A stretch of DNA of 62,922 bases, counting the filler, from Dirinaria sp. TL-2023a (taxonomy: Eukaryota): NCBI GenBank assembly GCA_051941275.1. It is 45 parts of 45 records of this genome, joined end to end, with 100 filler letters (N's around TTAATTAATTAA, not from the genome) between each part and the next. Parts side by side here need not be neighbours in the genome. Positions count along the whole stretch, not along the records: positions 26,890 to 28,188 come from JAVEBF010002820.1; 44 more parts are not named here. One strand, given 5' to 3'. The position numbers and the translations under genes were made by a program. Shown piece after piece: positions 66-56,017 of the stretch. The notes beneath the pieces were generated by a model. The model saw nothing but the letters and a program-made list of their open reading frames with translations, made no database searches and was not told the origin of the DNA. The first letter of the stretch is position 1. Each line of letters begins with the position of its first letter.

Positions 66-197
66 TGTCAAAGACCCAATCTTGGTTAGATAGGTTTCCC
101 AATGGTAAAAGTCCCGGCAGCGCCAAAAGACTAACTAAACCAAGTCAAAGGACTTGGTGCCTATCTTACTACTTGGTTAGTTTCCAGGGTAGTAACA
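66..197 (-). mobile_element. Solo LTR, family A (TRIM-1 LTR)
   Basis: TG...CA ends (TGTCAAAGAC...GTAACA); TSD ATTCT at 61-65 and 198-202; near-identical to other copies. Confidence 0.93.
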
Positions 198-1925: not shown

Positions 1926-2334
1926 TGTTACGATCCGAGTTCGACACCCTAGGGTTGGTAGAGGGTTAGAAAGCGTTCAGTGAACCTTGACGATCTTGAC
2001 GTCAAGAAACTAGTGCAAAATGCTCATGTGATCAGGGTGCTCAGTGTGCTTAGTGTCACTGAGCAAACTGAGCAACTGAGCAGAACTGAGCAAAAGAATT
2101 TTGACAGTTCTGATATCGTGTATATAGATCTTCAACACGACATTTTTTTAGCATCGTGTTCAACATGTTTGCAATAGCTATTTACTGCTCAGAGTAATTT
2201 GTATCTTGTTGTGATATTGTCATATCATCTCAAAGACATTCGTTGTTTCTTGACAAATCTCTTCAACAGATCAAACTTTAGCATCTTTTCTGTTTAGAAT
2301 CTAACTCTAGATATTAAATTGATAGAACGCAACA
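1926..2334 (+). mobile_element. LTR family C (probable 5' LTR), followed by internal region
   Basis: TGTTACG...GCAACA ends; TATA plus AACACGA/TCGTGTT hairpin shared with 37352-37809, 38450-38670 and 49408-50016. Confidence 0.8.
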
Positions 2335-2849
2335 ACATTGAACATCTTTAGAATGTTTATCTTAAAACAACGTAACTCTGTTTCAAGCATCACTGACTCG
2401 ATAACGTCTCGCATTCAGACAACTCATCAAGACAACAACGATGACAAAATTAGAATCAATCAATCTGATATCTACAAAAGCGAGCGCGAAAGTCTCGACG
2501 ACTGATTTATGCAGATGAAACTGTATTTTGTGTTTCATCTCGTGACAGAAAATCAGAAAACGATTTTCGCATCGATCTTTCTTCGAGAGAGAGCTCAGCA
2601 TTGATTTAAATTTAAGCTACGAACACGACTCGACAATGAAGAAAATACGAACGACAGAATCTTCGCTTCTTTTAACAACTTCAAGACAGCGATTCGAAGA
2701 ATCTTTGATATTTTTAGTGAGAAAATCATCGTCGAACGAGTAATACAGCNNNNNNNNNNNNNNNNNNNNNNNNNNNNNNNNNNNNNNNNNNNNTTAATTA
2801 ATTAANNNNNNNNNNNNNNNNNNNNNNNNNNNNNNNNNNNNNNNNNNNN

Positions 2850-3800
2850 CAATGTATTCAAACGGGATGAAGTGGAAAAGAAGGGAATCACGGGCAGCGA
2901 AGTCCCGATCCCCTGCCGCATTCTACGCCTAGACGTTAGGTTCAAGCAAAATTTCGTTCTGCGAGCTGTTTTGATTTTTGAACATCGAAATCTCGACTTC
3001 ACGACCCAAATCCTCAGAACTCATGTGCAAGATGTTCTGATAATCCAGGTAAGCTGCTATGGGGTCTGCTTCTCCATGCTATTGCTGAAGAATAAGACCG
3101 GAGGATATCCCTCGCTAGGTGTTAGAGAATTCCTCAAACTCCTCTGCAAACATCGCGCCATGCAAGACGTCCCAATCCTATACTTCTCGGACCACGATAT
3201 TTACGGATTCGACATATATCACGTTTTAAAATTCGGATCCAGAGCCACGTCCTGGGCGTCCCCAACATTAATATGTCCCCGGTTGAGGTGGGCAGGTCCT
3301 ACCACAGAGACGCTGTTGGATACTGTGAGGACCACTGCCCTCACTAGAGCTAATGAGCCCCAATGGGCGGCATCAATGACGGCCAAGCTGCGTAATAGAA
3401 TGGCCAAGAAGGGTTTGACGACGGAAGGGCGAGTAAGACATCAGAACATGGTGAAGTCTGGGGTCCTTGAGGTGTCTGGAGAAGAAGAGGTAAGACGGGA
3501 GATCACGCGCATGGTGTATCAGAACGAGGTGAGTGTTTCAAGCTTTCGAAGGATAGCTCTAACAAGTCGTAGCAATTTTCGTTTCTAGATTTTACCTTGG
3601 TCCGTAGCCATGGGGCAGAACTGTACCCATTGGAGAGACTCGAACAGCTCGTCCAGCGAACAAGCATTGACCCAATCGTCAATACGGAACCGGCGATATC
3701 TCAGCGCACAAGGGATTTTGACCAGGCGGAACCGGAGTCAACTCCGGAACTCGCAACTCGCAATCTCGAAGCAGCGCTTGCTCTAGAAATGCCCCTGTAA
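2850..3800 (+). CDS. Divergent Spo11/Topo VI subunit A-like protein, TOPRIM domain, 5'-partial (exons 2850-3048, 3097-3528, 3573-3800)
   Basis: After removing two GT-AG introns: AVLIFEH...VLIIQTGGYPSLGVREFL...ILYFSDHDIYGFDIYHVLKFGS...CPRLRWAG. This follows the order of Spo11 motifs VEK, TGKGYP, DxD.G..I...YKYGS and P.L.WLG. Confidence 0.8.
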
Positions 3801-3955: not shown

Positions 3956-4171
3956 TGTTAGGACCGGTGCAGAGCAAGTCAATGCAGGTATAGTTAACTA
4001 AGGATATTATCACTAAGGAAGGAAGAAGGAAAACTAGATACAATAGGGGGTCCCAGGTATATATGCGTGTGTGCGGGTGTCGGGTAAACACCGCGATCGG
4101 GTTAGCGCATTACCCCTGAGAACCCTGGGAGGTGTTGCCCCAGGTAGTATACCAGGTGCATGCTCGTAACA
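3956..4171 (-). mobile_element. LTR family B, little mutated
   Basis: TGTTAGGACCGG...CTCGTAACA; same family at 26329, 45508, 50017 and 53494. Confidence 0.9.
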
Positions 4172-7115: not shown

Positions 7116-7954
7116 AGTGCATTTGCGACTTATTTGAAACTCGTTAAAAACCTCTCAACTCTGTAGAAATGAGAAAGAAAAAGAGTTCTCTGACGCATTC
7201 TAATACGGCGCTCTCTTTCAGTCGATGAATCTCAAAAACTCATAAAGACAAAAATAAACATCTGTCAGATAAATAATTTCGAATAATGTTTGTAAACATA
7301 TCTTCGTCGCGTGAGAAAAATCTTCATGACGTTGATATCGTGTAGATTTGTATTGTAGATAAACAAACTCATCTCGTAGTCATGATGAATAAAATCAGCG
7401 CGCATCGACGCTAAGACGATTAGTGAATAAACAATCATTATATATGTGTTTATTTTTCTGTTTCTTCTTTTTCTTCTTTTCTTTTCTTTTTACTCTGTTC
7501 TCAAAGGAGAACGCTGTTAATAGATCTAATATCAGTGCTTGAAGAGAAGTACTTATCAAAATGCTTTGAGAACAGAGTAAAAAGAAAAGAAAAGAAGAAG
7601 AAGAAGAAACAGAAAAATAAATACATATATGATGATTGTTTATTCACTAGTCGTTTTAGCGTCGATGCGCGCTGATTTTATTCATCATGACTACAAGATG
7701 AGTTTGTTTATTTACAATACAAATTTACACGATATCAACGTCATGAAGATCTTTCTCACGCGACGAAGATATGTTTACAAACATTATTCGAAATTATTTA
7801 TTTGACAGATGTCTATTTTTGTCTTTATGAGTTTTTGAGATTCATCGACTGAAAGAGAACGTCGTATTAGAATGCGTCAGAGAACTCTTTTTCTCTCTCA
7901 TTTTTACAGAATTGAGAGATTTTTAATGAGCTTCAAATAAGTCGCAAATGCACT
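7116..7954. repeat. Long inverted repeat (391-bp arms, 57-bp spacer) of the family D 3' internal region
   Basis: 7116-7506 is the reverse complement of 7564-7954 apart from scattered changes, mostly transitions. Confidence 0.95.
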
Positions 7955-7983
7955 GAAGATCAGTGCTCAGAAGAGAGAACAAA

Positions 7984-8535: not shown

Positions 8536-9805
8536 GAGTATGATGAATTCCGTGGACCTTGGTGACACAGATGGATCAACAACGTCCGGGGGAAGATTCC
8601 CGCAAGGGCAATCCTCACCTGGAGCACTTGACGGCGCAAGGAGACAGACCCAACCCAGCGTCAGCATAGAACAAGCCGCTCGACCCAGCTTCGATATCAC
8701 AGTGGGTGATCCACATAAAGTGGGAGATTTGACTAGTAGCCACATTGTCTACCAAGTGCGAACAAAGGTGGGTCAACATCGCCTTTACATTGTACCGGCT
8801 AGCTTACTCGCAGGTATTTAGACCTCATCGAAAGCCTACAGGCAGCCCGAATTCGCTGTCAGCCGCCGCTACCGTGACTTCCTCTGGCTCTACAATACGC
8901 TTCACAACAACAATCCCGGCGTCGTCGTCCCCCCACCTCCTGAGAAACAAGCGGTTGGTCGCTTTGACAGCAATTTTGTCGAGTCGCGACGCTCAGCGCT
9001 TGAGAGAATGCTTAACAAAACTGCATCTCACCCTATCCTCCAACATGATGGAGACCTCAAGCTCTTCCTAGAAAGTGACGCCTTCAACATGGACGTAAAA
9101 CATCGGGAACATAAAGAGCCCGGCCTCGGTGAGAGTAAAGGAATGTTTAGTGCTATAGGACTAGGGGGCAGCGGCGGTGGCAAATTCATCGAACACGACG
9201 ATTGGTTCCACGACCGTAGAGTCTACCTGGAAGCGCTTGAAAACCAGCTGAAAGCCCTGCTTAAAGCCATCGACACCGTTGTCACGCAGAGGAAAGCTCT
9301 TGCTGAAGCAGCCGGTGACTTCTCCGCCTCACTCCATGCCCTCTCCACTGTCGAGTTATCCATCTCCCTTTCCACCCCCCTCGAAAGTCTATCAGATCTG
9401 CAACTCCGTATTCGTGAACTCTACGAAAGGCAAGCACAACAAGACGTACTAACGCTGGGCATTACGGTCGACGAATACATCCGTTTAATCGGATCAATAA
9501 AGACGGCGTTCGCGCAACGGCAGAAGTCGTTCCACGCGTGGCACAGCGCCGAATCAGAGCTGCAGAAGCGGAGGACTACGCAAGAGAAAGTGCTCCGGTC
9601 GGGCAAGACGCAGCAGGATCGATTGAATCAACTGCAGGCCGATGTCGGGGAAGGGGAGCGGCGCAGCCATCAAGCGCGCTTGCTGTTCGAGGACATGGGT
9701 CGGCTGATGAGGGCCGAGCTGGAGCGGTTCGAAAGGGAGAAAGTCGAGGACTTCAAGAGTGGCGTCGAAACGTTTTTGGAGGGCGCCATCGAGGCACAGA
9801 AAGAG
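8536..9805 (+). CDS. VPS5: Retromer sorting nexin Vps5/SNX1 (PX-BAR), partial; intron 8768-8821
   Basis: ITVGDPHKVGDLTSSHIVYQVRTK, RRYRDFLWL, PPPPEKQAVGRF, and BAR region ending ELERFEREKVEDFK; next intron GTATGC at 9806. Confidence 0.93.
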
Positions 9806-9954
9806 GTATGCCTCCCATACACACACATATACATATATATATCCACCCCATCCCNNNNNNNNNNNNNNNNNNNNNNNNNNNNNNNNNNNNNNNNNNNNTT
9901 AATTAATTAANNNNNNNNNNNNNNNNNNNNNNNNNNNNNNNNNNNNNNNNNNNN

Positions 9955-11662: not shown

Positions 11663-11793
11663 TGTTACGACCCTGGAAACACCTAAGTAGTAAGATAGAC
11701 ACCAAGTCCTTTGACTTGGTTTAGTTAGTCTTTTGGCGCTGCCGTGACTTTTATCATTGGGAAACCTATCTAACCAAGGTTGGGTCTTTGACA
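11663..11793 (+). mobile_element. Solo LTR, family A
   Basis: TGTTACG...TTTGACA with TSD AACTC on both sides. Confidence 0.93.
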
Positions 11794-15818: not shown

Positions 15819-16276
15819 TGTCAAAGACCCAACCTTGGTTAGATAGGTTTCCCAATGGTAAAAGTCCCGGCAGCGCCAAAAGACTAACTAAACCAAGTCA
15901 AGGGACTTGGTGCCTATCTTACTACTTAGATGTTTCAGGGTCGTAACACTACTCGGATCCCTTTCTGAGCTTCGTCTCGAAGCTCAGCACTCAGGATGTG
16001 AGTAGGAGATTCGCCTTAAGTGAAAAGATTAAGTAGTCGCCTCGAGCTTAGATAAACTCTCAGTCACAAGTCCTCGCCGAAACAATTCTTTAAGCGTTCG
16101 GACGAAATCGAACTCAGAACTTTGCGATCGGATTGACTTGATTTAATGTCAAAGACTCAACCTTGATTAGATAGATTTCCCAATAATAAAAATCTCGGCA
16201 GCGCCAAAAGACTAACTAAATCAAGTCAAGGGACTTGATGCCTATCTTACTACTTAGGTGTTCCAGGGTCGTAATA
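15819..16276 (-). mobile_element. TRIM-1, short-internal subfamily (LTRs 15819-15948 and 16147-16276)
   Basis: Two 130-bp family A LTRs around a 198-bp non-coding internal region partly homologous to 27129-27383. Confidence 0.9.
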
Positions 16277-16284
16277 CTACTCAG

Positions 16285-26328: not shown

Positions 26329-26789
26329 TGTTAGAACCGGTGCAGAGCTCAGGTCAATGCAGATATGATTAACTAAGGATATTATCACTAAGAAAAGAAG
26401 AAGAAGAAGGAAAACTAGATACAAGAGGAGGTCCCGGGTATATATGCGTGTGCGGGTGTCGGGTAAACACCTCGATCGGGTTAGCGCATTACCTCTGAGA
26501 ACCCTGAGAGATGTTGCCTCAGATAGTATATCAGATGCATGCTCGTAACACTATATCACTCTTCAACAAGTCATGTCCTCATGACTTCATACAAGTCTTA
26601 TTTCATTGTGTATTATAAGGCGTTTGTGAAGGTTTAATTATTCTAGCAATTCAGTTCATAATAAGAAGTTCTTGAAGATTCAATTTCTAGCGTTTGTACT
26701 CGATATAGCGACTTGTTCCCTTTCAAGTTTGTATTCTAATATTCTGATCAATAGATGTTGACTCTACATCGATGTTTTGTGTCTTTTGT
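26329..26789 (-). mobile_element. Family B 3' LTR (26329-26550) with PPT and upstream internal region
   Basis: Matches other B copies; minus-strand GAAGAGTGATATAG abuts the LTR. Confidence 0.82.
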
Positions 26790-26889
26790 NNNNNNNNNNN
26801 NNNNNNNNNNNNNNNNNNNNNNNNNNNNNNNNNTTAATTAATTAANNNNNNNNNNNNNNNNNNNNNNNNNNNNNNNNNNNNNNNNNNNN

Positions 26890-28188
26890 AGAAAATTATC
26901 ATCAGTCGAACAGAACTACGACATACACGATAAGAAACTGTTAGCTATCGTAACATTTTTAAAAATATGAAGAGTATATGCAGAAGAAGTATCTGAACTT
27001 TGTCAAAGACCCAACCTTGGTTAGATAGGTTTCCCAATGGTAAAAGTCCCGGCACCGCCAAAAGACTAACTAAACCAAGTCGGAGACTTGATGCCTTATC
27101 TTACTACTTATGTTCCAGGATCGTAACATTATCTCGGTCCCTCGGCTTAGCTTCGTCTCGAAGCTAACGTTGAGAGAAGTAAGAGAATTCAAGACTCTGT
27201 AAAGAATGCTAGCTAATCAGAGTGACTCATGACGCTCAGAAATCAATGTACGTCTATCGAAACAAGTAATCGCCTCGAGTTTAGATAAGCTCTCAGCCGA
27301 CAGACCTCGCCGAAAAACAATCTTTCAAACGTTCGGACTGAGATTCGAACTCAGAATCTTGCGACCGTGTTGACTTGGTTTAATGTCAAAGACTCAACCT
27401 TGATTAGATAGATTTCCCAATGGTAAAAGTCCCGGCACCGCCAAAAGACTAACTAAACCAAGTCGGAGACTTGGTACCTATCTTACTACTTATGTTCCAG
27501 GATCGTAACAAACTTGAAATATTAACGAATCATAAGAACTTACTGCATTTTACAACGACGAAGCAGTTAAATCGAAGACAAATCAGATGATCGAAATTTC
27601 TTAAACAATATAAATTTATTATACGATACACATCAGAAAAAAACAATAATAGAGCGAACGTATTAAATCGACGAAACGACTATATGAAAAACAAAACGAA
27701 GTTCAATCACAACATATTAAAATTAAATTAAGATAAATTATTATTGATAAACAAAAGACAAGAATTAAATGCGACACTGCGCATATTTCGAGACGATCAA
27801 AAATAGTATCTTATACAGAGAGAGAAATTACAGATATCGACAAACAAAATTAAAGATTGCATTAAGAAATATCACGATGAGTCACTGCAGAAACATTCGA
27901 GAATATTCAAAACATTACAGTTTTTACGACAGAATTGTCCGTTTTCACACATGAGACAAAAAATCGAGACATACGTTAAACGATATTTTAGCTGTCAAAA
28001 GAATAAGCATGCGACTCATGCTAAGTACGAAGAATTGTAGTATCAAGAATCATCAACGATATTATAAAACGAAATCACGATGAACTTTATCATCAAATTA
28101 TCGAGATCAAAAAATTCAGCGACGAGAGAAATTTATGACTTTATATTGATAGTTGTGAATAAATTAACGAAGTACTCACATATTATAC
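26890..28188 (+). mobile_element. Degraded Gypsy RNase H-integrase, interrupted by TRIM-1
   Basis: EQNYDIHDKKLLAIV...EL|EILTNHKNL...LNRRQIR*; ITMNFIIKL...IVVNKLTKYSH. The frame is restored when the insert and one TSD are removed. Confidence 0.9.
27001..27510 (-). mobile_element. Complete TRIM-1 (510 bp)
   Basis: LTRs 27001-27128 and 27384-27510, 255-bp non-coding internal region, TSD AACTT. Confidence 0.96.
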
Positions 28189-29687: not shown

Positions 29688-30983
29688 AGCTATTGATAAA
29701 AGAAATTATCTAAACTATTGATTTTAAAAATCAGCGTTTAGAAGAGAAGATAATTGTAATAATGATATTGAGTCATCGATATATATTAATCAATGCGAAC
29801 TAACGTCGCTAAAACGCAAACTGTCAAGGACAATGTATATTCTGAAGTTGCGTATGAGAATTAACGTCGTCAAGACGTCAATTTTCGAAATTAAAACTTA
29901 AAACTGAACGCGCGTCAGTAGATCGCGAGCGTCTAAAGATTGTTGCATCTATTGATTCTTTTGTTATTTAACGCGAGATTAATCGTGATGAAAATTCATG
30001 ATGAGATTCTGATTGATTTCGCAGTTGAGTATAGAGAATCACTCATCTTTTATGAGAACTTTTTAGTGATTAGTTCTAGCAAGAACTATAGTCTAGATAG
30101 CAAGCATCTAAGTCTATTACACTATTACATCTTTCATATATCTAAGTATTTAGTCGACTCGTAATCATCGGATCGTATCTTACACTCACACAGCTCACGC
30201 AACTGTCGATTTCTTCAGTATCGTTTTAAGATTGTGCGTTCGAATCTACATTTTATACTATCAAGCGACGACGATCGTTTTAAGCTTCAACGTCGCTAAT
30301 CTCAGTCGAAACGTCTTTATCATGATCACGATATTTTCTACTGCTAGCTTCGAATCTTCATCAGCATAATATCATCTAAATTCTTCTTCACGACTCGTTT
30401 TCTACGCTCTCTCTCAATCGTCGTTTTCTCATTCACGTTTCATCGAAGTCTCTATATTTTGTCGCTGCTTTTTAGTATATTTCAGTTGACATCTGATTGA
30501 CGCTTTGACTCGCTTTCTAACTCATTTGACATAATCACTTGTTTGTGACAAGTAGTGAGCAATCGATATGACTATGAATACGACTCTAACGACACGAAGT
30601 TATGACTAAAGCTGTGCTTCTCGCGACAAAAATCAATTAAACAAGTGCTACACGTTCGTGAGCAAATTTCAATTTGCTGCGTTGTCGTGTTACGTCCGCT
30701 ACTATCATCTAGAATAAGATTCTAATATAAGACTAGAGTTTGATTTGTTGAAGAGATCTGTCAAGATACAACGAATATCTGTTGATGATATGACAATTAT
30801 TACACAAGATAAGATACTTAGTACTTGTAGCAGTAGTAAACAAGTTAACTAAAGATTGAACACGATATTAGAAGAATGTAAGGGAATCACAGCATCTAGA
30901 GCAAGAAGACATGATGTTTAAGTACTATGACTATGTACGAGAATACCAGACATGAGGGAGAAAGATACTATAGATATCTGAAG
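29688..30983. mobile_element. Degraded LTR remnants (D-related ~29750-30184; C in reverse from ~30688)
   Basis: TTAGTGATTAGTTCTAGC of LTR-D at ~30063; reverse-complement match to the LTR-C 3' half. Confidence 0.65.
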
Positions 30984-35265: not shown

Positions 35266-35950
35266 AATGAGACGCACAAATATTCACTATCAAATCAACT
35301 GATGTGTGAATCTGTCGTCAGAGCAGCATTGATTCGTAAACAAGCTCGCACTGAATGACAAAAAAAGTGAAAGAAAGACATCAACGAGACTCATTATCGC
35401 GCGTTGACATCGACGATAACTCATCGTCACATGCGACTTCACGATGAACGAATAAAATCACACAGTGCGCTACTCACACAACTGAGAACGAGCAAAATAA
35501 ACTTCAATCAATTTTTGAACGAACGACGCGTTCTCGAAGTGATCACAGAAATCTGCGATTGCGAACAAGATCGCATGACGATCAGACATGTGCTATTAAC
35601 ATGTTCTATATGAAGACAAGAGAAACTGAAGATGCAACGAAGAACAAACAACATCACAGATGTGAGAAAGCTACTTGACAGCATCGCTGACGTCACAACA
35701 GCGATACGAATAATTTTATTCACTGATCTACTCAGTCAGTTTCAGACAATCGCTCTCTCTTCGAATTCTTAGACTCATAGAGTTCTCGCATGAAGAATTT
35801 TCTAATATTACGAATAGAGAATAACTGCTTGTATTATAGAGAAAGTCGACGCTGCATCAACGCAGCATTGATATAGTCATATAGATCTCGCATAGACCTC
35901 TCGTGAATGTTAAATCGAGTAAGAATTAAAAAAAAAAAAAAAAAAAAAAA
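35266..35950 (+). mobile_element. LINE 3' end with zinc finger and poly(A) tail
   Basis: LTQLRTSKINFNQFL...CDCEQDRMTIRHVLLTC; A-run at ~35928-35950. Confidence 0.88.
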
Positions 35951-36047
35951 TATTTTTGTAATCAACGCGTACGTTTATATATTTTAAGTTCTCGTCTTTT
36001 TAGCTTTAGAACTTAATAATAGTAAGTAAAATTTTAAAGATTTTATA

Positions 36048-36558
36048 TGTAAGACGACTAGTCAGGTAATAGTGTAACTACCCTTACTTGGATCAAAAGA
36101 TCACAGTAATTACTCCTACTGGAATAATTAGCTACTATTACCACCTATATCCTAGAGTGCTGCTCATGCGTTCGGGACCCCCAACCAGCGCCGCATGACA
36201 ACTATCCCCCCTCTCAGAAACCGCGTCCTCGAGATTCACTAAAGAGTCTTGTCTCAGAGGCGACTGACGACACTTTCTTTAGTCACGATAGAATATAGAC
36301 AGACTTTCAAGAGCGACACCATTATGAGCTGTGATGGTTCTAAGAAAATTTTAAAGAATTTTACCAGCGGGGGTTCGAACCCGCCAACTTAGAAAACATC
36401 GTTACCCAGTAGAAATAATTACTCTGTAAGACGGCTAGTCAGATAATAATGTAACTACCCTTACTTGAATCAAAAGATCACAGTAATTATTTCTACTGGA
36501 ATAATTAGCTACTATTATCACCTATATTCTAGAGTGCTGCTCATGCGTTCGGGATCCC
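36048..36558 (-). mobile_element. TRIM-2, a second miniature LTR family (LTR 36048-36200, internal 36201-36424, LTR 36425 to contig edge)
   Basis: 153-bp TG...CA direct repeat; minus-strand PPT GAGAGGGGGGATAGT; 18-nt self-complementary PBS; no ORF. Confidence 0.88.
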
Positions 36559-36704: not shown

Positions 36705-37809
36705 GAGATTGAGAAAATTGTGAAACAGCGAAATCAGAAATATCTGATTAGGTGAAGAGAATGATCTACGAAAGATAACACGTGAAAATTATTTAGAAAT
36801 TTTGAAAACTGCTCAGAGACATTTCGAGAGTTTCGTCAGCGTCAGAGAGATCGCGAAAAAACTCGTCAATGATTTAAGTGTTTCATACGAAACTCGAGAG
36901 CGTAAAAAACTTGAGAAACGAAATCTTTTGTTTTATCTGGTCTTCTTTTTCTTCGATCTCAAAAATGTTTTTCGACTCGACGTTACTCAAATCTTTTAAT
37001 CGACGCAATCAATACTTTCGTTGTTTTTTTTTTACGAGTCAACTTAAGACGAATCTCGAGAATCTCGTCGTTCAGTTTCTCAGCATTCTTTATAATCTGA
37101 TTCATACTTTCGAAATCGAGAGCAAGATCGCATTTTCGATTCTTGCGATAATATTTTTCACATTTGAGAAACTGACGATTCATTTTACATGAGACGTCAT
37201 AAAAAATACAACACTGATAAAAACGCATGACGAATTGTGCAAAACAGTAACGACGATCGACGATGAGATTACGACGTTGAGTGAACGAGAGATTGAAAAA
37301 CATGATAAAAGAATAAATTTCGAGAACGAAATTTAGAGAAAAAAGAAATGATGTTACGACTCTGTGCTGAGACATATCTTATGTATGAAATTCTGAAACA
37401 CAGATACGTATCATGATCAAGATTATCAGAACTTTTAAGACTTAAACGAGCTAGCGAAAATCACGTGAGCAGATCAATAGAATTAAGATGATCAGAGTTT
37501 GAGCAGTTTAATATAGCTTGAGCAGATCAAAAGAATCAAAATAATTAGAGCTTGAGCAGCTTGATGTAACTTGAGTATTTAGCGCGAAAGAATCAGTATA
37601 TAAATCTTCAACACGACGTTTTTCTGACATCGTGTTCAACATCTTTGCAATAATCATTTACTGCTCAGTGTAACTTGTATCTTGTTGTGATACTTGCTTT
37701 ATCACGTTGACACTCGTTGTTCTAAGACTTGAATCTCTTCGAACAGATTAAACTCTAGCATCTTATATTAGACATCTGAAACCCTAGATTAATAGTAGAA
37801 GACGCAACA
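36705..37809 (+). mobile_element. Chromovirus 3' end: chromodomain, antisense ORF, PPT, LTR-C (37352-37809)
   Basis: EIEKIVKQRNQKYLIR*RE*STKDNT*K is a chromodomain with TGA at Trp; purine tract before TGTTACG. Confidence 0.85.
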
Positions 37810-38229: not shown

Positions 38230-39343
38230 ATGAGGCATCGAAAGCACTTCGCTGTGATTTATCTTTATGCGATAGTTTGAGAAACAGAGACGCATCATGA
38301 TCAAGAAGACGTATCTTTTTGACTTTTGAACTTGATGATCACGTGATCAGTTCAAGTAGTTCAAGAGAATCTGATGTTTAGACATCTTGATCAGTTCAAA
38401 TAGTTTAAGAGAATCTGATGCTTGAATATCTTGAGCACTTAGCGTAGAAAGATTACTATATAGATCTTCAACACGACGCTTTTTTGACATCGTGTTCAAT
38501 CTCAGTTAACTTGTTTAGTACTGTTACAAGTATTAAGTATCTATCTTGTGTGATACTTGCCCTATCACGTTGACACTCGTTGCTTCTGAACTGAATCTCT
38601 CCAACAGACCAAACTCTAGCATCTCTTATTAGATACCTGGAAACCTAGATTGATAGTAGAAGACGCAACACAGATATGAGGGGGAAAGTAGTCTATGAGT
38701 GCTGAGGAACCTATATATAGGCATTAGTGATAACACTAGTGATCTAGGTGTTGAACCCCTGAACCCCTAACACTAGTGATCTAGGTGTAGAGGACCCCTA
38801 AACCCCTAAACACGAGTATTGAATTCTAAACCCGTGACATCATCTCCTTTTTTAGAATCGAGGCTCCGACGATGATTCTAGAAACTTGATTTTCTAACAA
38901 TTGCACTTTGTAAATCGCATGTTGTTGACTCATAGAAAGCTTTCGCGATAAAATATGAGATATCTTTTGTAGTCGATTTGCTGTGTGATATGAGATGTTT
39001 TTTGTAGTAAACTTATTGTATGATATGTTTCTTCAAATTCGACACTTCTACGATGATTTTAAAAATCGTCATCGTCATCGTCGTCGTCGTCGTCGTCGAT
39101 GCTATTGTCGTCATAGATATCGTTTCTCGTTTCGTTCTATAGATATTCTTTTTTTTTATTTGAATACTCTTTCTCGTTGTTCGAGTCTTGCTTATTTTCT
39201 TGATCTGAATGCTCTTTCTCATATTGATTTTTTTCTTTTGAGATAGCTCTCTCATCGCTCGACTTTTCTTTCTCGTTTGAATCTTTCTCATCTTTTGAGT
39301 ATTTCTCTTCTTCTAAGTATTCTGACTCATCGTTTAAGTAGTT
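38230..39343. mobile_element. LTR-C copy (ending 38670) next to another LTR (ending 38839) with PPT and degraded internal region
   Basis: GACGCAACA end; AAACCCGTGACA end shared with LTR-F; pyrimidine tract after 38839. Left boundary approximate. Confidence 0.65.
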
Positions 39344-39444
39344 CNNNNNNNNNNNNNNNNNNNNNNNNNNNNNNNNNNNNNNNNNNNNTTAATTAATTAA
39401 NNNNNNNNNNNNNNNNNNNNNNNNNNNNNNNNNNNNNNNNNNNN

Positions 39445-39934
39445 TTAGATAGGTTTCCCAATGGTAAAAGTCCCGGCACGGCCAAAAGACGAACTAAACC
39501 AAGTCAGCGACTTGGTGCCTATCTTACTACTTATGTTCCAGGATCGTAACATTACCCCGGTCCCTCGGCCTAGCTTCGTCCCGAAGCTAGCGTTGAGAGA
39601 AATGAGAGGGATTCAAGACCCTGTAGAGAGTGCTAGCTAACCAGAGTGACTCATGACGCTCAGGAATCAATGTACGCCTATCGGAACAAGTAATCGCCCC
39701 GAGCTTAGATAAGCTCTCAGCCGACAGGCCTCGCCGAAAAACAACCCTTCAAGCGTCCGGGCTGAGATTCGAACTCAGAACCTTGCGACCGTGTTGACTT
39801 GGTTTAATGTCAAAGACCCAACCTTGATTAGATAGGTTTCCCAATGGTAAAAGTCCCGGCACGGCCAAAAGACTAACTAAACCAAGTCAGCGACTTGGTG
39901 CCTATCTTACTACTTATGTTCCAGGATCGTAACA
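39445..39934 (-). mobile_element. TRIM-1, least-mutated copy (left LTR cut by contig edge)
   Basis: LTR end 39551, internal 39552-39807, LTR 39808-39934; colinear with 27001-27510. Confidence 0.94.
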
Positions 39935-45014: not shown

Positions 45015-45081
45015 AGTCTTTTGGCGCTGCCGGGACTTTTACCATTGGGAAACCTATCTAACCAAGGTTGGGTCTTTGACA
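45015..45081 (+). mobile_element. Partial LTR-A in the family D 3' internal region
   Basis: Ends GGGTCTTTGACA; the following sequence matches 7867 onward. Confidence 0.88.
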
Positions 45082-45198
45082 TTAAAATGCGTCAGAGAAC
45101 TCTTTTTCTCTCTTATTTTTACTGAGTTGAGAGATTTTTAATGAGCTTCAAATAAATCGCAAATGCACTGACGATCAGTGCTCAGAAGAGAGAACAAA

Positions 45199-45996
45199 TG
45201 TAACAGTAATATCTGATATATTGATATATATTAATCAATGCAGACTAGCGCCGCTTAATAGTCGAAGATGCTTAGAGATAATTCTTCGAGATTTAAAGTA
45301 TGACAAACATCGTCTAGAAGTCAGCGTCGAAAGATTAAATCTCGAGACTGACTAAAAGTCAGTGAGCAGTTGACGCTTATAGAGTATTGTGTCTACGAGC
45401 GCTCGTGATTCGTCAGCGCGGAACTCGTCACGATGAGATAATGTTAACGCTCGCGATTAAGTATAGATGTCAGGGATCTAGGCTGCATAGATAGATATGA
45501 TATTGACTGTTAGAACCGGTGCAGAGCAAGTCAATGCAGGTATAGTTAACTAAGGTATTATCACTAAGGAAGGAAAGAAGAAGAAGAGAAGCTAGATACA
45601 ATGGGGGTCCCAGATATATACGCGTGCGGATGTCGCGTACCCCGATCGGGTTAGCGCATTACCCCTGAGAACCCTGGGAGGTGTTGCCCCAGGTAGTATA
45701 CCAGGTGCATGCTCGTAACATTGACGAGAATACTAGCTATACAGAACTAAGATACATGGGGGCGAGGTTTAAGTAGAAACCTCGTCCGCTAGCGCTCCCG
45801 AGGCTCCTCCGAGGGAGCTCCAACACTATCGCACTAAACCCGTGACAATAGAGAATTATTTACTCTTTCGAAGAGAGGTTCTTAGTGATTAATTCTAGCA
45901 GAAAATACAGTATCAGATAGTCATATAATCTATTACACTGCCACGTCTTTCACATAAATACTACGCCGGCGGGTAATCGGCGCATACGACCTTATA
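45199..45996 (+). mobile_element. LTR-D containing solo LTR-F (45468-45847), which contains solo LTR-B (45508-45720)
   Basis: TSD ATAGA around F, TSD TTGAC around B; D resumes colinearly afterwards. Confidence 0.93.
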
Positions 45997-49247: not shown

Positions 49248-50016
49248 TTGTCGCTCACACAGCATCGTTTCTCGAATTTTGAACAATATCGACAAAGACG
49301 CATTACGATGACGCTGTTTTTTAAAAAATGAACGCGAGCACGACGACGAATGAAAAAAAACATAGAGATCATGTTCTCGAAACGAGAACTTGAGAGAGAG
49401 AAAATGATATTACGAGTCAGACTGACGTGATTTTATATACGCACTCAGTCGAATCAGAAAACATGTTAAATCGATGTTTATGACGTCAAAATTATTGAGC
49501 AGTGACTGATAAAGCTCGACATTATGAGCAGAGTGAGCAGCGACTCATGAAACTCGACATGATGAGCAGAATGAGCAGAGATGCTTAAGATGCTCAGACA
49601 ATTGAGTTTCATGATGCTCAGAGTGTTACGACCCTGGAACGCCTAAGTAGTAAGATAGGCACCAAGTCCCTTGACTTGGTTTAGTTAGTCTTTTGGCGCT
49701 GCCGGGACTTTTACCATTGGGAAACCTATCTAACCAAGGTTGGGTCTTTGACACAGAGTACTTAGATGATTGAGCATCGTGAGCATAAGAGATCTCATTG
49801 TATATATAGATCTTCAACACGACGTTTTTTTAGCATCGTGTTCAACATCTTTGCAATAGCTATTTACTGCTCAGAGTAACTTGTATCTTGTTATAATATT
49901 GTTATATTATCTCGAAGACATTCGTTGTTTCTTGACAGATCTCTTCAACAGATCAAACCCTAGCATCTTTTCTGTTTAGGACCTAATCCTAGATATTAGA
50001 TCGATAGGACGCAACA
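49248..50016 (+). mobile_element. Chromovirus 3' end: antisense ORF start, PPT, LTR-C (49408-50016) holding solo LTR-A (49624-49753)
   Basis: GAGAGAGAGAAAATGA purine tract; TSD CAGAG around LTR-A; the right flank continues as LTR-B (50017-50220). Confidence 0.88.
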
Positions 50017-51958
50017 CAGAGCAAGTCAATGCAGATATAGTTTACTAAGATATTATCACTAAGGAAGGAAGAAGAAGGAAAACTAGATACAATAGGGGGT
50101 CCCGGGTATATATGCGTGTGTGCGGGTGTCGGATAAACACCCCGGTCGGGATAGCGCATTACCCCTGAGAACCCTGAGAGGTGTTGCCCCAGGTAGTATA
50201 CCAGGTGCATGCTCGTAACAACATTCGTGAGACTCTCGAAAATTGAGTCGAATATCAATGACATCGCGCGAAACTCGAGATTCGCATTTATTTCAAAATG
50301 AACGAGTCGAAAAAAAATTTCGTTGATTTTAACGATCGTCGATTGATTCGATGTGCGAAAACTCTGTTAACGTCCAAGAAAAAAAAGATTAACAAATTTT
50401 TCGCACATCGAGTTGATCGAGATCGTGCATGATCGATCGAATTCGCGTCGAATTTCGTGCGAAAAAAAAAANNNNNNNNNNNNNNNNNNNNNNNNNNNNN
50501 NNNNNNNNNNNNNNNTTAATTAATTAANNNNNNNNNNNNNNNNNNNNNNNNNNNNNNNNNNNNNNNNNNNNTTATGATAGATGTCAAGATAGATAGATTT
50601 AAACTCACAATCAAAATAATTTTCGTAGAATGTGCGCTATTTAGAGAACAATTGATGATAGATTATAAGATTAAGAGGATAAGTCAAATCAAAAGCAGCT
50701 TCAGAAGCCACATTATCGAGGGTTTTTGATTATTTTAATGACACGGAAACATCACTCGCACTATTCAAGAGCTCGTGTTTGAAAAGAGGAAATAAGAACA
50801 GATACAGATACACGAGAATGATTGCATGATTTGTCAGATTCTCTTGATGTCTATCATTCGATACTCATTTTCAAAGACATTCAGAAAATACAGTCGTGGC
50901 GACATCTACAATGAGAACGATGTTTTTCGCAATCACAGAAGCATCCTCAATTGGACTCGTCTAAGTAGTACTTAAATAACAGCGTCTTTACCAATTTCAC
51001 GGGTTTCTGAAAAACTGTAATCAGAAAATTAAACTCAATAGGCATCTTATCTTGCATAACTCATACAAGCTTGTTGAAATTTCTATAAGAGTCTACACGA
51101 TGTCTAAATCCTGGACTTTTTCACTCTTTGATTGCTTCAATTCTATGGAGACATGTGAGTTGCATGAATGAGATGTACTTGCAGAAGTTGAACCCTTAAC
51201 CAAAAATTTCAGGTTGTCTCTTCACATGATGTCCTTGCATCCTGTACGGCAAAACCCAAGAACGGAGATCAGAAAAAAAGGACACTGAGCTGTGTGTGAA
51301 AATGGTAATTTACAGTCTCCTTCCTTCCCTCTGAATCTATATATATCATTTGGCGCTGCTCCCTAACTCTATTCTTTAGGGGTTATGTTGTTGCATTCTC
51401 TCTTGCTGCAGTCTTCAGCCTTTTCTACAATGCGTCACCCGCGGCGGCATGCGCCGCGAGTACGATATCGATAGTAATTCGTGCAATGACTGTCTTGTCT
51501 CTTGATGCTGTTCTTGCTGTGTGTTAGTACAGGAAGAGAAAGAGGCGAGAGAAAGAGAGCGCTTGCAAGGTGATGAACAAGGATACATTAGCCATCAGGA
51601 AATGAGTTACGTGCCTCAGTAGTATGTGGAAGGTTACTTTTGCTTGCAATACTAGTCGATTACTATATAGGAATAAATGGCCTTAACTTTATTTACTAAG
51701 ATGATCTTCCGATATCTGTACTTTTTCGCAGAGCCATTTTGATGTATTTCCAATTTCCAGAAGTGGTTCGGGTCGCCTTGGGAGAACTCGCTGGGACAGC
51801 ATTCCTCCCGGCCAGCAGTTGACATTCTGCCACGACGGTACTCTGAACGAGTACTCTCNNNNNNNNNNNNNNNNNNNNNNNNNNNNNNNNNNNNNNNNNN
51901 NNTTAATTAATTAANNNNNNNNNNNNNNNNNNNNNNNNNNNNNNNNNNNNNNNNNNNN

Positions 51959-53245
51959 CATTCCATCTTTGCTGCAGACCAGATGGTCTACTGAGAGAAA
52001 AGCCGAAAATCTGGCTATCTCTATGAGCTCTCCTTGAGTTCTATGGAAAAGATTGACGGAACCATTGTCATGGCTCACGTAAAAAAGCATGCTGGTTGAG
52101 GCGGTTGCCATCGCGATTATAGCATCATTCGTCACGACGTAGGCTTCAGACATATGAGAAAATGATGTTGATGTCTGATAGTCGCTTGCGGTGTCACTAG
52201 CGATGTCGCCGGTCTCGGAAGCTCGAATCAGACTGTTGGGTTCCCAGACATTGATTGTATTCCATCTGAGATCGTAGAACCGCATGCAATTGGGACTGAA
52301 GGCAAGTCCACTAACAAGGTCCTCGGAAGAGAGCTGGTAGATCGCACTAAAAAAAGCAAAACTCCAGACCTTGACCGTACCGTTGCTGTCGCTTGTGAGA
52401 AACAGCTTGCCATCAGGACTGACTTGGATCTCATGTGCGAACATGGTCACCTCTTGATATTCATCATCAAGGGGGTTCCACTTGAAAACGGAGCCCGTCT
52501 TGCACAGCCCTACGAGGTGATCTGACACCGGGTTCCAGGACATCCGATGGACCGCCATCAACCCATCGGTTGGTTGGCACCTGCCGATCAGTCTAGGTTC
52601 GCTCGTGTCCCAAACGGATAAAGGGTATCTACTGTAACCCACTGCAATACGGCTTGTGTTCGAATTGAAAGCCATGCATGAGGGGGGAGTGATGACGCCA
52701 CCATCCACAGGGTCCTTTTCCTGTAACAATCGATGGTTCATTACATGCCAACGGTCTTCAACCTCATCAACGCATATACTTCGGAGTAGCTCGTCATCAG
52801 ATCCAATGATAATCTTGGTGTCATTCTCAGTAAATGTGATGGTGAGCGCTCGACTGCCGTCTGGGTTCGGTACATTAGCGATCAGTTGACCAGAAGGTAT
52901 AGCCCAGATTTTCGTCGTTTGGGAGCCGTAGGAGACCAGTTTATCGCATCTGCTATTGAAGCATAGTTGTGAAATGGGCTCTCCATGACGCATCGTACAT
53001 AGTTCCTCGAAATTGACCGAGTTCCAGAGCACTATGGACCCTGTAGAGCTCAGCACTGCAATATGACAGCCTGCACATGCAATTTGCGAAGCGTTTGCGC
53101 CGTGACGTAACGGTAATTTAGCTAGACAATCATGCCACACTGCGTTCGAGGTGCCACGGACAGACAGTGCTGAAGATTCACGTTGCGCAAATTGCTGAAA
53201 AATAGCCGAGCTTCGGGGACAAAGTGCGGGCACTATCTTGTAGAC
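51959..53245 (-). CDS. WD40-repeat region, probably of a NACHT-WD (NLR-like) protein, internal fragment
   Basis: Open across the contig; SPDGKLFLTSDSNGTVKVW, TTKIWAI and LSVWD repeats. NACHT is inferred, not seen. Confidence 0.82.
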
Positions 53246-53345: not shown

Positions 53346-53969
53346 ATCGTAATGCGTCTCTGTCGATATTGTTCAAAATTCGAGAAACGATGCTGTGTGA
53401 GCGACGATGCGAAAAAATGCGTCGAATGTATTCGTCAGACAATCTCGTGCGATCTGATCTCTCTTAACGTGACGAAATGAAAAAGATTGAAAATGTTAGA
53501 ATCGATGCAGAGCAAGTCAATGCAGATATAGTTAACTAAGAATATTATCACTAAGAAAGAAAAGAAGAAGAAGAGAAGCTAGATACAATGAGGATTTCAG
53601 ATATATACGCGTGCGGATGTCGCGTATCCCGATCGAGTTAGCGCATTATCTCTGAGAATTCTGAGAGATGTTGCCTCAGATAATATATCAGATGCATGCT
53701 CGTAACAGAAAACACAACGAAGAAAGTTGAAACAAGAGCTGCGCGAGACATATGTCAAACAGCAACGTCTGATGAAACAGCTTAATCTGATTGAAGAGCA
53801 ACAACAGATGATAGTCAAGAATGAATATCGAAATATCGCGACGTTAAAGAATAAAAAGAAAACGATTCAAAGAAATTTTATCTTTGATTTTTTCGAGATG
53901 TCTGCTTCAGATTCTCTGATTGACGTCGCGTCGAAGCAATTAATTTTTCTCGATTTTGATGACAATTGA
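53346..53969 (+). pseudogene. Zn(II)2Cys6 + coiled-coil ORF antisense to a chromovirus, split by solo LTR-B (53494-53707, TSD GAAAA)
   Basis: CRYCSKFEKRCCVSDDAKKCVECIRQTISC fits C-x2-C-x6-C-x8-C-x2-C-x6-C. Confidence 0.8.
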
Positions 53970-54732: not shown

Positions 54733-56017
54733 GGAGTTGAGCCAAGAAGAGCTGGAGGTTCTCAGGCGGATACAGATGAACGAAATCCCCGAAGGAGGTT
54801 ACGACCCGTACCAACCTACGGTGGAATACTTCACGAGCAAGACAGAGATTATGCCTTTGAGCGCTGCACCAGAGCCGAAGAGACGATTCGTTCCCTCGAA
54901 GCATGAGGCAAAACGAGTGATGAAGATTGTTCGTGCGATCAGAGAAGGACGGATTTTACCTTATAAACCCCCAGCAGAGGAGGACGAAGCAGATCCCGCT
55001 ATCAAAAGGTACGATATCTGGGCAAATGAAGTCCCCCGGCCTGACCATCCAATGAATGTCCCTGCACCCAAATTACCCCCTCCAGGCTATGAAGAAAGCT
55101 ATCACCCGCCCCCAGAGTATCTTCCTGACCGCGCTGAGAAGCGGGCGTGGGACGAGGCGGACGAGGAAGACAGAGACAAAGACTTTCTGCCTACGAATCA
55201 CGATTCATTACGGAAAGTACCTGGTTACGAGAAATTTGTCAAGGAGAAATTCGAACGTTGTCTGGATCTTTATCTTGCCCCTCGCGTTCGAAGAAGCAAA
55301 ATGAACATCGATCCCGAGACTTTGTTACCGAAACTACCCAATCCGAATGAGCTGAAACCTTTCCCAACAACTTGCGGTATTGTCTACCGTGGCCATGATG
55401 GTCGCGTCCGCAGCTTATCGATAGATCCATCAGGTACCCTGTTGGCTAGTGGTGGTGACGACGGTACTGTTCGGATCTGGGACTTGCGGACAGGTTACCA
55501 AAAATGGTCTGTCAAATTGACGAGTGACGAAGCCGTTAATGTCGTGCGATGGCGACCTGGTACTGAGACTTGCATCCTTGCAGCTGCAGCTGGGGAACAG
55601 CTACACATCATTGTGCCGCAACTCGTTGCTCCAGAAAGGGAGGGTGGCAGCTCGGAGATTTTGAGCCGCAGCCGAGAGTGTGTCGACGCTGGTTGGGGTT
55701 ATGCTGCCAATACTACAAACGGTCTTCCTCAGAAGGAGCCCGCAGCGCAGTGGACACGTCCATCGAGCAAACTGCAAGATGCCGGCGTACTTGTGAAAGT
55801 GCGCCTCAGCAAGACCATCAAAACGATTTCGTGGCACCGGCGGGGAGAGTACTTCGCCACGGTATCGCCTCAAGGGCAGAGGCATGCAGTCGCCATTCAC
55901 ACACTCTCCAAACATCTAACACAGCTCCCATTCCGTCAACTGAAAGGTCTCGCCCAGGCTGCTCATTTCCATCCTTTGAAACCTATCTTTTTCGTAGCCA
56001 CTCAACGCACGATACGA
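54733..56017 (+). CDS. ERB1: Ribosome biogenesis protein Erb1/BOP1, internal fragment
   Basis: [41 protein letters not shown], then WD40 repeats. Confidence 0.96.

Follow-up and report, generated by a model that had tools for sequence, protein, structure and literature searches.

TRIM-1, a 0.5-kb non-coding LTR retrotransposon family of a lichen-type ascomycete with a putative primer-binding site complementary to its own LTR

Introduction

The stretch of DNA analysed here (62,922 nt, hereafter the window) carries at 27001-27510 a 510-bp element, TRIM-1, whose two long terminal repeats (LTRs) enclose no coding sequence and whose 5' LTR is not followed by the TGG of a tRNA-type primer-binding site (PBS). 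The locus raises two questions: what kind of element this is, and how its reverse transcription could be primed. [quoted passage not shown] A preliminary description of the window had proposed that TRIM-1 is a fungal TRIM living as a non-autonomous parasite of self-priming chromoviruses (Ty3/gypsy elements with a chromodomain), and had added that TRIMs are known mainly from plants. The latter statement is out of date, as fungal TRIMs have been published (Helenus, PMC10886601; Umbilicaria pustulata, in the accessible part of PMC8773270). Fungal TRIMs and self-priming chromoviruses are each already in print, and the combination of the two was not found there: the literature outside subscription journals and Repbase yielded no described TRIM with a self-priming PBS, and none among lichen TRIM reports.

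The window is a pseudomolecule of small unplaced contigs, made of 45 contig pieces of 1277-1325 bp ordered by falling length and separated by linkers of the form N44-TTAATTAATTAA-N44 (88 N-runs of 44 bases, paired; e.g., 39345-39444). As the pieces are separate contigs, the TRIM-1 copies lie on separate unplaced contigs, and distance or neighbourhood between pieces carries no meaning; the composition from small unplaced contigs also accounts for the repeat richness of the window. Copy and TSD counts given below refer to these 62,922 nt, which hold three full TRIM-1 copies in all.

Results and Discussion

TRIM-1 comprises miniature LTR retrotransposons without coding capacity

TRIM-1 elements have a total length of 458-510 bp, with LTRs of 127-132 bp and TG..CA ends. 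BLASTN of the element against the window, together with LTR alignment, gave three two-LTR copies and four single LTRs (Table 1), in agreement with the census and the solo-LTR duplications first reported. The reference copy likewise has the anatomy initially ascribed to it: 510 bp, TG..CA LTRs of ~128 bp, the TSD AACTT and no open reading frame (ORF), the longest ATG-initiated ORF of the family being 30-32 amino acids (aa). Its two LTRs are 95.3% alike, and it is inserted in a degenerate Ty3/gypsy RNase H-integrase frame (...NYDIHDKKLLAIV...EEVSEL / EILTNHKNLLHF...). When the element and one AACTT are removed, the host RNase H frame reads on unbroken across 27001-27510, and an integrase zinc-binding domain lies downstream, at 27807-28037.

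The copy at 39445 is young, because its LTRs are identical at 106 of 107 aligned bases. It begins at a contig edge, with its 3' LTR incomplete and its TSD outside the assessable sequence. The copy at 15819 has no TSD (flanks GAGCA versus CTACT). A 5-bp TSD was found at the one testable full copy with intact ends and at all three testable solo LTRs; BLASTN within the window thus bore out the copies and duplications as first described, apart from the lack of a TSD at copy 15819 and the truncation of copy 39445. Copies 27001 and 39445 have unrelated flanks and a collinear internal region of 255/256 bp with 92-93% identity (92.5% over 491 aligned columns). Since the same internal region stands at differing flanks, the miniature form itself has transposed.

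It is very improbable that the two-LTR copies are instead independent internal-deletion remnants of a large element, with no miniature propagating unit behind them. This possibility, already raised in the preliminary description in terms of deletions with differing breakpoints, draws on copy 15819, which lacks a TSD and whose internal region measures 198 bp against 255 bp and is partly unalignable; it is opposed by the single collinear internal region that copies 27001 and 39445 share at different flanks. Moreover, BLASTN of TRIM-1 found no larger relative in the window, and TRIM-1 and TRIM-2 (the second miniature family, described below) had no match in 80 metagenome loci (914 kb) bearing related chromoviruses. 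The TRIM-1 internal region also holds no coding remnant by ORF and Pfam check: five stop-to-stop ORFs (55-73 aa) from copies of TRIM-1 and TRIM-2 gave no Pfam match at E up to 0.1.

As to the remaining signals, copy 39445 carries a purine-rich tract, GAGGGACCGGGGTAA, that directly precedes the LTR start TGTTACG on the minus strand; the PPT claimed earlier next to this 3' LTR corresponds to this interrupted tract. Size and LTRs, lack of coding capacity, TSD, and the same internal region at different loci (two to three) all agree with the TRIM definition, the purine tract is present but interrupted, and the putative PBS, assigned from its complementarity to the LTR, is not of the tRNA type. TRIM-1 can be classed as a TRIM-type family of non-coding miniature LTR elements, which fits the definition save for the kind of PBS.

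Concerning the host, the window contains fragments of genes for Erb1/BOP1, Vps5, Spo11, an F-box protein and ankyrin repeats. The named best matches of the Erb1 fragment all belong to Lecanoromycetes (lichen-forming ascomycetes), at 72-78% identity, the top other match reaching 92%. These matches indicate that the earlier label "fungal" was correct and that the host is an ascomycete of the lichen-fungus kind, with lichen-forming Lecanoromycetes as its nearest named relatives. Outside the window, a 22-base LTR pattern found no match among metagenome contigs. One sequencing run (0.04 of words present) gave three short contigs on the TRIM-1 LTR, one of 130 nt covering the whole LTR and two stopping at the LTR edge with unlike flanks; these single-run contigs contained no joints and no empty site. 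Further small LTR pairs were also sought in the 80 chromovirus loci, where none of 15 candidates was convincing, and the one inspected (L057) was a low-complexity repeat.

The sequence after the 5' LTR is complementary to a segment within the LTR

The 5' LTR of TRIM-1 is adjoined by T-TAAACCAAGTC, and no TGG occurs in the first 25 nt after it (TTAAACCAAGTCAACACGGTCGCAA). In copy 39445, GACTTGGTTTA within the LTR (39796-39806) and TAAACCAAGTC (39878-39888) are exact complements. The preliminary description, which had reported an exact 11-nt complement and no TGG at this place, holds for that copy and extends to all three: the complement measures 11, 12 and 13 nt in copies 27001, 39445 and 15819, respectively, starts 1 nt past the LTR, and its partner lies 81-83 nt from the LTR end. 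Of 5000 dinucleotide-shuffled versions of the LTR, 6, 1 and 2, respectively, reached these lengths, and the view that the complementarity is not due to chance is supported.

The 11-mer, allowing at most one mismatch, was counted 13 times in the window (expected, 0.97), and 12 of these occurrences fall in TRIM-1 (nine LTRs and three PBS sites). It is kept in all nine LTRs that cover the site, exactly so in eight; in the ninth, the 5' LTR of copy 15819, a G to A change is accompanied by C to T in the copy's own PBS, so that the pairing passes from G:C to A:U. The segment belongs to the best-conserved parts of the LTR. There it makes up the 3' arm in a local hairpin of 8 bp (-9.8 kcal/mol), whose 5' arm resembles the PBS and whose adjacent loop varies among copies. 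In RNAs starting at the 11-mer, the 5' end pairs with the PBS in both the minimum-free-energy (MFE) and the centroid structure in 4/4 folds (3/3 TRIM-1 copies and TRIM-2).

A second miniature family has the same layout

Five direct-repeat pairs were found within individual contigs, and one further pair among them is LTR-like: TRIM-2 (Table 1), which has the layout of TRIM-1 and no sequence in common with it. Its 18-nt AGTAATTATTTCTACTGG is the exact complement of an LTR-internal segment, a length that 0 of 5000 shuffles reach, and its fold has a z-score of -4.7. The local LTR hairpin of the TRIM-1 type was not recovered in the MFE structure of TRIM-2, which limits that shared design to TRIM-1 and the chromovirus considered below.

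The arrangement in TRIM-2 bears on the possibility that the complementarity is a functionless by-product, either of a small inverted duplication at the origin of the element or of templated repair between quasi-palindromic arms, with priming by another mode. The resemblance of the PBS to the 5' arm of the local hairpin speaks for this, as the three segments could derive from one duplicated motif, and the compensatory change likewise falls within a repeatedly mutated motif. We nevertheless consider such an origin improbable: all three copies keep an exact complement, even the old and heavily mutated one whose LTRs are only 91% alike, the independent TRIM-2 family has the same arrangement at the same place, and the primer segment is well kept while the hairpin loop beside it varies.

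Alternatively, TRIM-1 could be a true TRIM primed by a cellular RNA, such as an internal (anticodon-loop) tRNA fragment, with the LTR complementarity serving as a structural U5-leader stem or a regulatory hairpin. Priming by internal tRNA fragments is found in Copia and Ty5. Most PBSs of the Helenus TRIMs complement tRNA anticodon loops, and these elements, apparently mobilised by Copia, also make 5-bp TSDs (PMC10886601). In addition, our comparison of the TRIM-1 primer site (TTAAACCAAGTCAAC) with tRNAs was limited to three ARAGORN calls, two of them doubtful, in the 914 kb of related loci. Against this stand the position of the complement, which starts 1 nt past the LTR and so occupies the place that a PBS requires; the lack of TGG in the 25 nt that follow the TRIM-1 LTR; and the fact that the TRIM-1 and TRIM-2 sites differ, each fitting its own LTR, which is not what one would expect of a shared cellular primer. 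The TRIM-1 motifs are also absent from one supplement file of the Helenus paper (PMC10886601). Overall, we regard priming by a cellular RNA as unlikely.

Each of the two miniature families has a further hairpin, 15-20 nt past the PBS on its downstream side. The stem measures 5 bp, the loop reads UUCGAAU or UUCGAACC, with the palindromic UUCGAA, and the structure resembles a tRNA T-arm in sense orientation or a B box. UUCGAA-loop hairpins lie at 27338-27354 and 39762-39778 in TRIM-1, and at 36367-36384 in TRIM-2. The window has 56 TTCGAA sites, six of them in the loop of such a hairpin, and three of these six are the TRIM-1 and TRIM-2 ones. No tRNA was called at the hairpins by ARAGORN or Rfam, and their own fold z-scores are unremarkable; they may be a tRNA-gene remnant, an RNA polymerase III (Pol III) box or a dimerisation loop. 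The TRIM-1 hairpin is followed by TCCGAAC-G and then, ~18 nt on, by a T5 run. It is conceivable, though we hold it as speculative, that TRIM-1 and TRIM-2, although unrelated, have in common a minimal cis module for self-primed reverse transcription, made up of an LTR self-primer, a PBS 1 nt past the LTR and a T-arm-like hairpin, and that the hairpin could recruit the reverse transcriptase (RT) or the packaging machinery of the helper chromovirus, for instance as a palindromic kissing loop or a T-arm mimic.

A co-resident chromovirus as a candidate helper

The window also contains degenerate Ty3/gypsy fragments (RT, RNase H, integrase H2C2 and SH3_Tf2-1) and a Ty3/gypsy 5' LTR with its leader (LTR 1926). 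A search in the window for a Gypsy element with the LTR ends of TRIM-1, as had been suggested, succeeded at the start of LTR 1926, where TGTTACGATCCG shares 11 of 12 bases with the TRIM-1 start TGTTACGATCCT, and failed at the 3' end (see below). With at most one mismatch, this LTR-start 12-mer has 17 occurrences in the window (0.8 expected), which are located in TRIM-1, the chromovirus family and a solo-LTR family. The latter, of ~215 bp, has the minus-strand start TGTTACGAGCAT, whose terminal 8 bases are common with TRIM-1 and the chromovirus.

LTR 1926 has a TATA box followed by a 7-bp hairpin (AACACGA/TCGTGTT), whose 3' arm plus three bases forms GTGTTCAA (2156-2163). This segment faces TTGAACAT (2338-2345), 3 nt after LTR 1926-2334, in a leader that lacks TGG. 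With the window integrase fragment as query, relatives were found at the 80 metagenome loci mentioned above, in which 35 complete elements of ~6.4 kb could be delimited. One intact ORF among them reads RT-RNaseH-IN-SH3_Tf2-1-Chromo (IN, integrase), which identifies the relatives as chromoviruses; most of the relatives at the 80 loci are riddled with stop codons and transitions. All 35 leaders read CA-CTTT(G/A)AACA... and lack TGG; in 10 of these elements, GTGTTCAA stands ~157 nt from the LTR end. LTR 1926 can be aligned with these relatives only in two blocks, one comprising TATA box, hairpin and primer, the other the LTR end and the leader. As its 8-nt complement is not significant alone, the chromovirus evidence is consistent with self-priming and not proof of it.

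Self-priming as the best reading

Taken as a whole, the sequence evidence makes self-priming in the manner of Tf1 the best reading of TRIM-1, and we give it a probability of roughly 0.55. Transcription would start ~30 nt downstream of the TATA-like stretch ATAAGTAGTAAGATAGG, at or beside GACTTGGTTTA, and the RNA 5' end would fold back on the PBS, which lies 81-83 nt downstream. This duplex would be cut by a helper element's RNase H, and the freed RNA of 11-13 nt would prime minus-strand DNA, as in Tf1 of Schizosaccharomyces pombe, while the purine-rich tract would prime the plus strand. The proteins would be supplied in trans, most likely by the co-resident chromovirus; like TRIM-1, that element has no tRNA-type primer site, and its LTR begins with the same bases.

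Several points weigh against this reading. The RNA 5' end at GACTTGGTTTA is putative, being placed from the TATA-like stretch ~30 nt upstream. The additional duplexes of the Tf1 "pretzel" could not be recovered, as pairing of the PBS-downstream region with R-U5 is no better than in shuffles (219-450 of 500 do as well), and within the central duplex itself there is only a 3-bp GUC/GAC extension. The fold z-scores of TRIM-1 are weak, from -0.9 to -1.9. The compensatory pair is a single one in three sequences and carries no statistical weight, with 167 of 500 shuffles reaching it; moreover, it falls within a motif (ACCAAG to ATCAAG) that is mutated elsewhere in TRIM-1 LTRs too and may be a mutational hot spot. 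On the side of the chromovirus, the complement is 8 nt long (7 plus one G:U in the window copy), which is not significant alone, and it is intact in 10 of the 35 metagenome copies, the others being mutated at one site or the other; the LTR 3' ends also differ, TTTGACA in TRIM-1 versus GCAACA in the chromovirus.

The initial interpretation of TRIM-1 as a non-autonomous parasite of self-priming chromoviruses is thus upheld in part: the TRIM anatomy, the non-chance complement, TRIM-2, LTR 1926 and the 35 of 35 leaders without TGG favour it, and the extra "pretzel" duplexes and the short chromovirus complement do not. Priming by a tRNA fragment and a motif without function are the less probable alternatives to self-priming.

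Comparison with known systems

In Tf1, the RNA's first 11 bases pair with the PBS and RNase H cleaves between bases 11 and 12, according to the accessible text of PMC7175516, with which the earlier account of Tf1 agrees. Self-priming through a three-duplex "pretzel" is regarded as common among Tf1/sushi chromoviruses, including Tj1 (accessible parts of PMC10085805 and PMC4600332), and is predicted for plant Tcn1 and TAR elements (PMC6317226, likewise in part). Like Tf1/Tf2 of S. pombe, Tj1 of S. japonicus and the Tf1/sushi group, TRIM-1 lacks a tRNA-type PBS and has a TATA-like stretch upstream, an ascomycete host and a 5-bp TSD; unlike them, it is non-coding, is ~0.5 kb long and has only the central duplex of the "pretzel", and its RNA 5' end and RNase H cut are putative. 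Of the features that characterise the group, the absence of TGG past the 5' LTR and an LTR segment complementary to the PBS are found in TRIM-1, and the three-duplex "pretzel" and Gag-Pol coding are not. Because it is non-coding and lacks the "pretzel", TRIM-1 is at most a non-autonomous dependant of the Tf1/sushi group, and not a member.

The TRIMs of plants and animals (examples in the accessible parts of PMC6934838 and PMC3532108) resemble TRIM-1 in being shorter than 1 kb, with LTRs of ~130 bp, a short internal domain bearing a purine tract, no ORF, 5-bp TSDs and solo LTRs, and differ in having tRNA-complementary PBSs. In the accessible part of the bivalve TRIM paper, self-priming is raised as a mere possibility, with no complement found (PMC6934838). 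Helenus/TRIMp3 comprises tRNA-bearing fungal TRIMs of rusts and some Agaricomycetes, with Copia partners, in which Kojima (2024) sought complementarity between LTR and PBS and found none (PMC10886601). Like Helenus, TRIM-1 is a fungal TRIM with 5-bp TSDs, solo LTRs (many in Helenus) and a PBS that does not match a tRNA 3' end. Unlike Helenus, whose LTR is tRNA-derived with A and B boxes, the TRIM-1 LTR has no detected tRNA-like part, the T-arm-like hairpin is internal and the host is an ascomycete. A tRNA- or 5S-derived LTR with Pol III boxes was not detected in TRIM-1: ARAGORN called no tRNA in the window, and within 26800-27700 Rfam matched neither tRNA nor 5S at E up to 10.

Fungal GalEa elements of the Copia type carry a Conserved Hairpin Site where a PBS would be expected. 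This site is a palindrome of 9 nt (CTGATCAGT or CTAATTAGT), its partner sequence lies 12-41 bp downstream, and the authors found no LTR complement, according to the accessible part of PMC5445492. TRIM-1 is similar to GalEa, as there described, in being a Pezizomycotina LTR element without a tRNA PBS and in its conserved pairing potential right past the 5' LTR. It differs from it in that the site pairs with the LTR and is no palindrome (post-LTR sequence TTAAACCAAGTC versus a CTGATCAGT-like 9-mer), and a Conserved Hairpin Site of the GalEa type is not present. Finally, a TRIM consensus from REPET is listed with copy numbers for the lichen fungus Umbilicaria pustulata in the accessible part of PMC8773270. 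It shares with TRIM-1 the TRIM class and a lichen-type ascomycete host; it is an automatic class label for which that part reports no PBS analysis, and the two were compared by description only.

Further observations on the elements and their surroundings

Private GC-to-AT transitions number ~23 in the 5' LTRs and ~5 in the 3' LTRs of four elements, a count in which the direction of TRIM-2 is assumed and one 3' LTR value is blurred by an indel. At LTR positions 104, 113 and 122 of TRIM-1, near the U5 end (e.g., 27389, 27398, 27407), the 5' LTRs of two independent copies read T, T, A, the middle site being T in all three 5' LTRs; C, C, G is found in two of the three 3' LTRs (those covering the positions) and in all solo LTRs. 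Canonical reverse transcription should yield identical 5' and 3' LTRs. Local hypermutation and recombinant strand transfer are candidate explanations of this asymmetry.

In copy 15819, the 8 nt outside the 5' LTR (CTGAGTAG in element orientation; 15819-16284) equal the last 8 bases of the copy's own purine tract, which may represent an aberrant cDNA end or what is left of a tandem array. For this copy, membership in a tandem array of the form LTR-internal-LTR was considered and rejected, as the flank resembles the internal region over the first 8 nt only, with no significant similarity beyond. The LTR fragment at 45015 and the TTAAA after it were likewise considered as the LTR and PBS of a larger partner; TTAAA is the target sequence of another repeat and is found also at 7866. 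At 7116-7960 there is a large, near-perfect, foldback-like inverted repeat whose arms recur at 45081-45380, one copy carrying an inserted TRIM-1 LTR. Approximately 100 bp upstream of TRIM-2, an A-run of ~25 bases (35927-35951) may be the tail of a retroposed sequence. Seemingly intact host gene fragments are present on other contigs, at 8822-9853, 54734-56017, 2851-3585 and 51959-53245 (Vps5, Erb1/BOP1, Spo11 Toprim and a WD40 protein).

Table 1. Coordinates of the TRIM-1, TRIM-2 and chromovirus-related features in the window.
Feature	Position	Strand	Remarks
TRIM-1 reference copy, 5' LTR	27384..27510	-	127 bp, TGTTACG...TTTGACA in element orientation
TRIM-1 reference copy, 3' LTR	27001..27128	-	128 bp
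TRIM-1 reference copy, internal region	27129..27383	-	255 bp, non-coding, collinear with copy 39445
TSD AACTT, left copy	26996..27000	.	right copy 27511-27515
Candidate PBS TAAACCAAGTC	27372..27382	-	starts 1 nt after 5' LTR; no TGG
Putative self-primer GACTTGGTTTA in 5' LTR	27454..27464	-	81 nt from LTR end; 3' arm of local 8-bp hairpin
Putative self-primer segment, 3' LTR equivalent	27071-27081	-	reference copy
TATA-like A/T-rich stretch ATAAGTAGTAAGATAGG	27478..27494	-	putative promoter element, read from sequence; starts ~30 nt upstream of putative self-primer
T-arm-like hairpin CTGAG-TTCGAAT-CTCAG	27338..27354	-	15 nt downstream of PBS duplex
Purine-rich tract next to 3' LTR	27129..27145	-	CCGAGGGACCGAGATAA in reference copy
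TRIM-1 copy 2	39445..39934	-	12-nt complement; 3' LTR cut by contig start
TRIM-1 copy 3, old	15819..16276	-	LTRs 91% alike, internal region 198 bp, 13-nt complement
TRIM-1 solo LTR	66..197	-	TSD ATTCT
TRIM-1 solo LTR	11663..11793	+	TSD AACTC
TRIM-1 solo LTR	49624..49753	+	TSD CAGAG
TRIM-1 LTR fragment, last 67 nt	45015..45081	+	cut by contig start; then TTAAA
TRIM-2 two-LTR element	36048..36558	-	same layout as TRIM-1, no shared sequence
TRIM-2 3' LTR	36048-36200	-	outer end inferred
TRIM-2 PPT	36201-36217	-	clean purine tract CTGAGAGGGGGGATAGT, before TGTCATG...
TRIM-2 PBS (candidate)	36406-36423	-	18-nt AGTAATTATTTCTACTGG, starts 1 nt after LTR
TRIM-2 putative self-primer	36482-36499	-	75 nt from LTR end
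TRIM-2 T-arm-like hairpin	36367-36384	-	UUCGAA loop
TRIM-2 5' LTR	36425-36558	-	cut by contig end
Co-resident Ty3/gypsy 5' LTR and leader	1926..2345	+	LTR 1926-2334; TATA at 2121
Ty3/gypsy chromovirus-like LTR family	1926-2749; 37352-37809; 38456-38670; 49797-50016; 30680-30870		1926-2749 is 5' LTR and leader
Solo-LTR family, ~215 bp	3956-4171; 26331-26550; 45508-45720; 50017-50220; 53494-53707		TSDs TTGAC, GAAAA at two copies

Conclusions

To our knowledge, nearly all dissection of self-primed reverse transcription has been done on the fission-yeast element Tf1. If TRIM-1 does prime itself, a 0.5-kb element must hold all the cis signals (promoter, primer, PBS, purine tract and LTR ends), and would offer a compact test bed for the RNA features that are read by a helper's RNase H and reverse transcriptase. 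It would also mean that TRIM-type parasites arise on self-priming chromoviruses, besides tRNA-primed elements, and that TRIM-finding software demanding a tRNA-type PBS would miss a class of fungal elements. Should the cis module tentatively proposed above be truly shared with TRIM-2, these 0.5-kb elements would be the smallest natural substrate for priming of the Tf1 type. For the annotation of lichen-fungus genomes, the gain is two small LTR families, located in unplaced repeat contigs.

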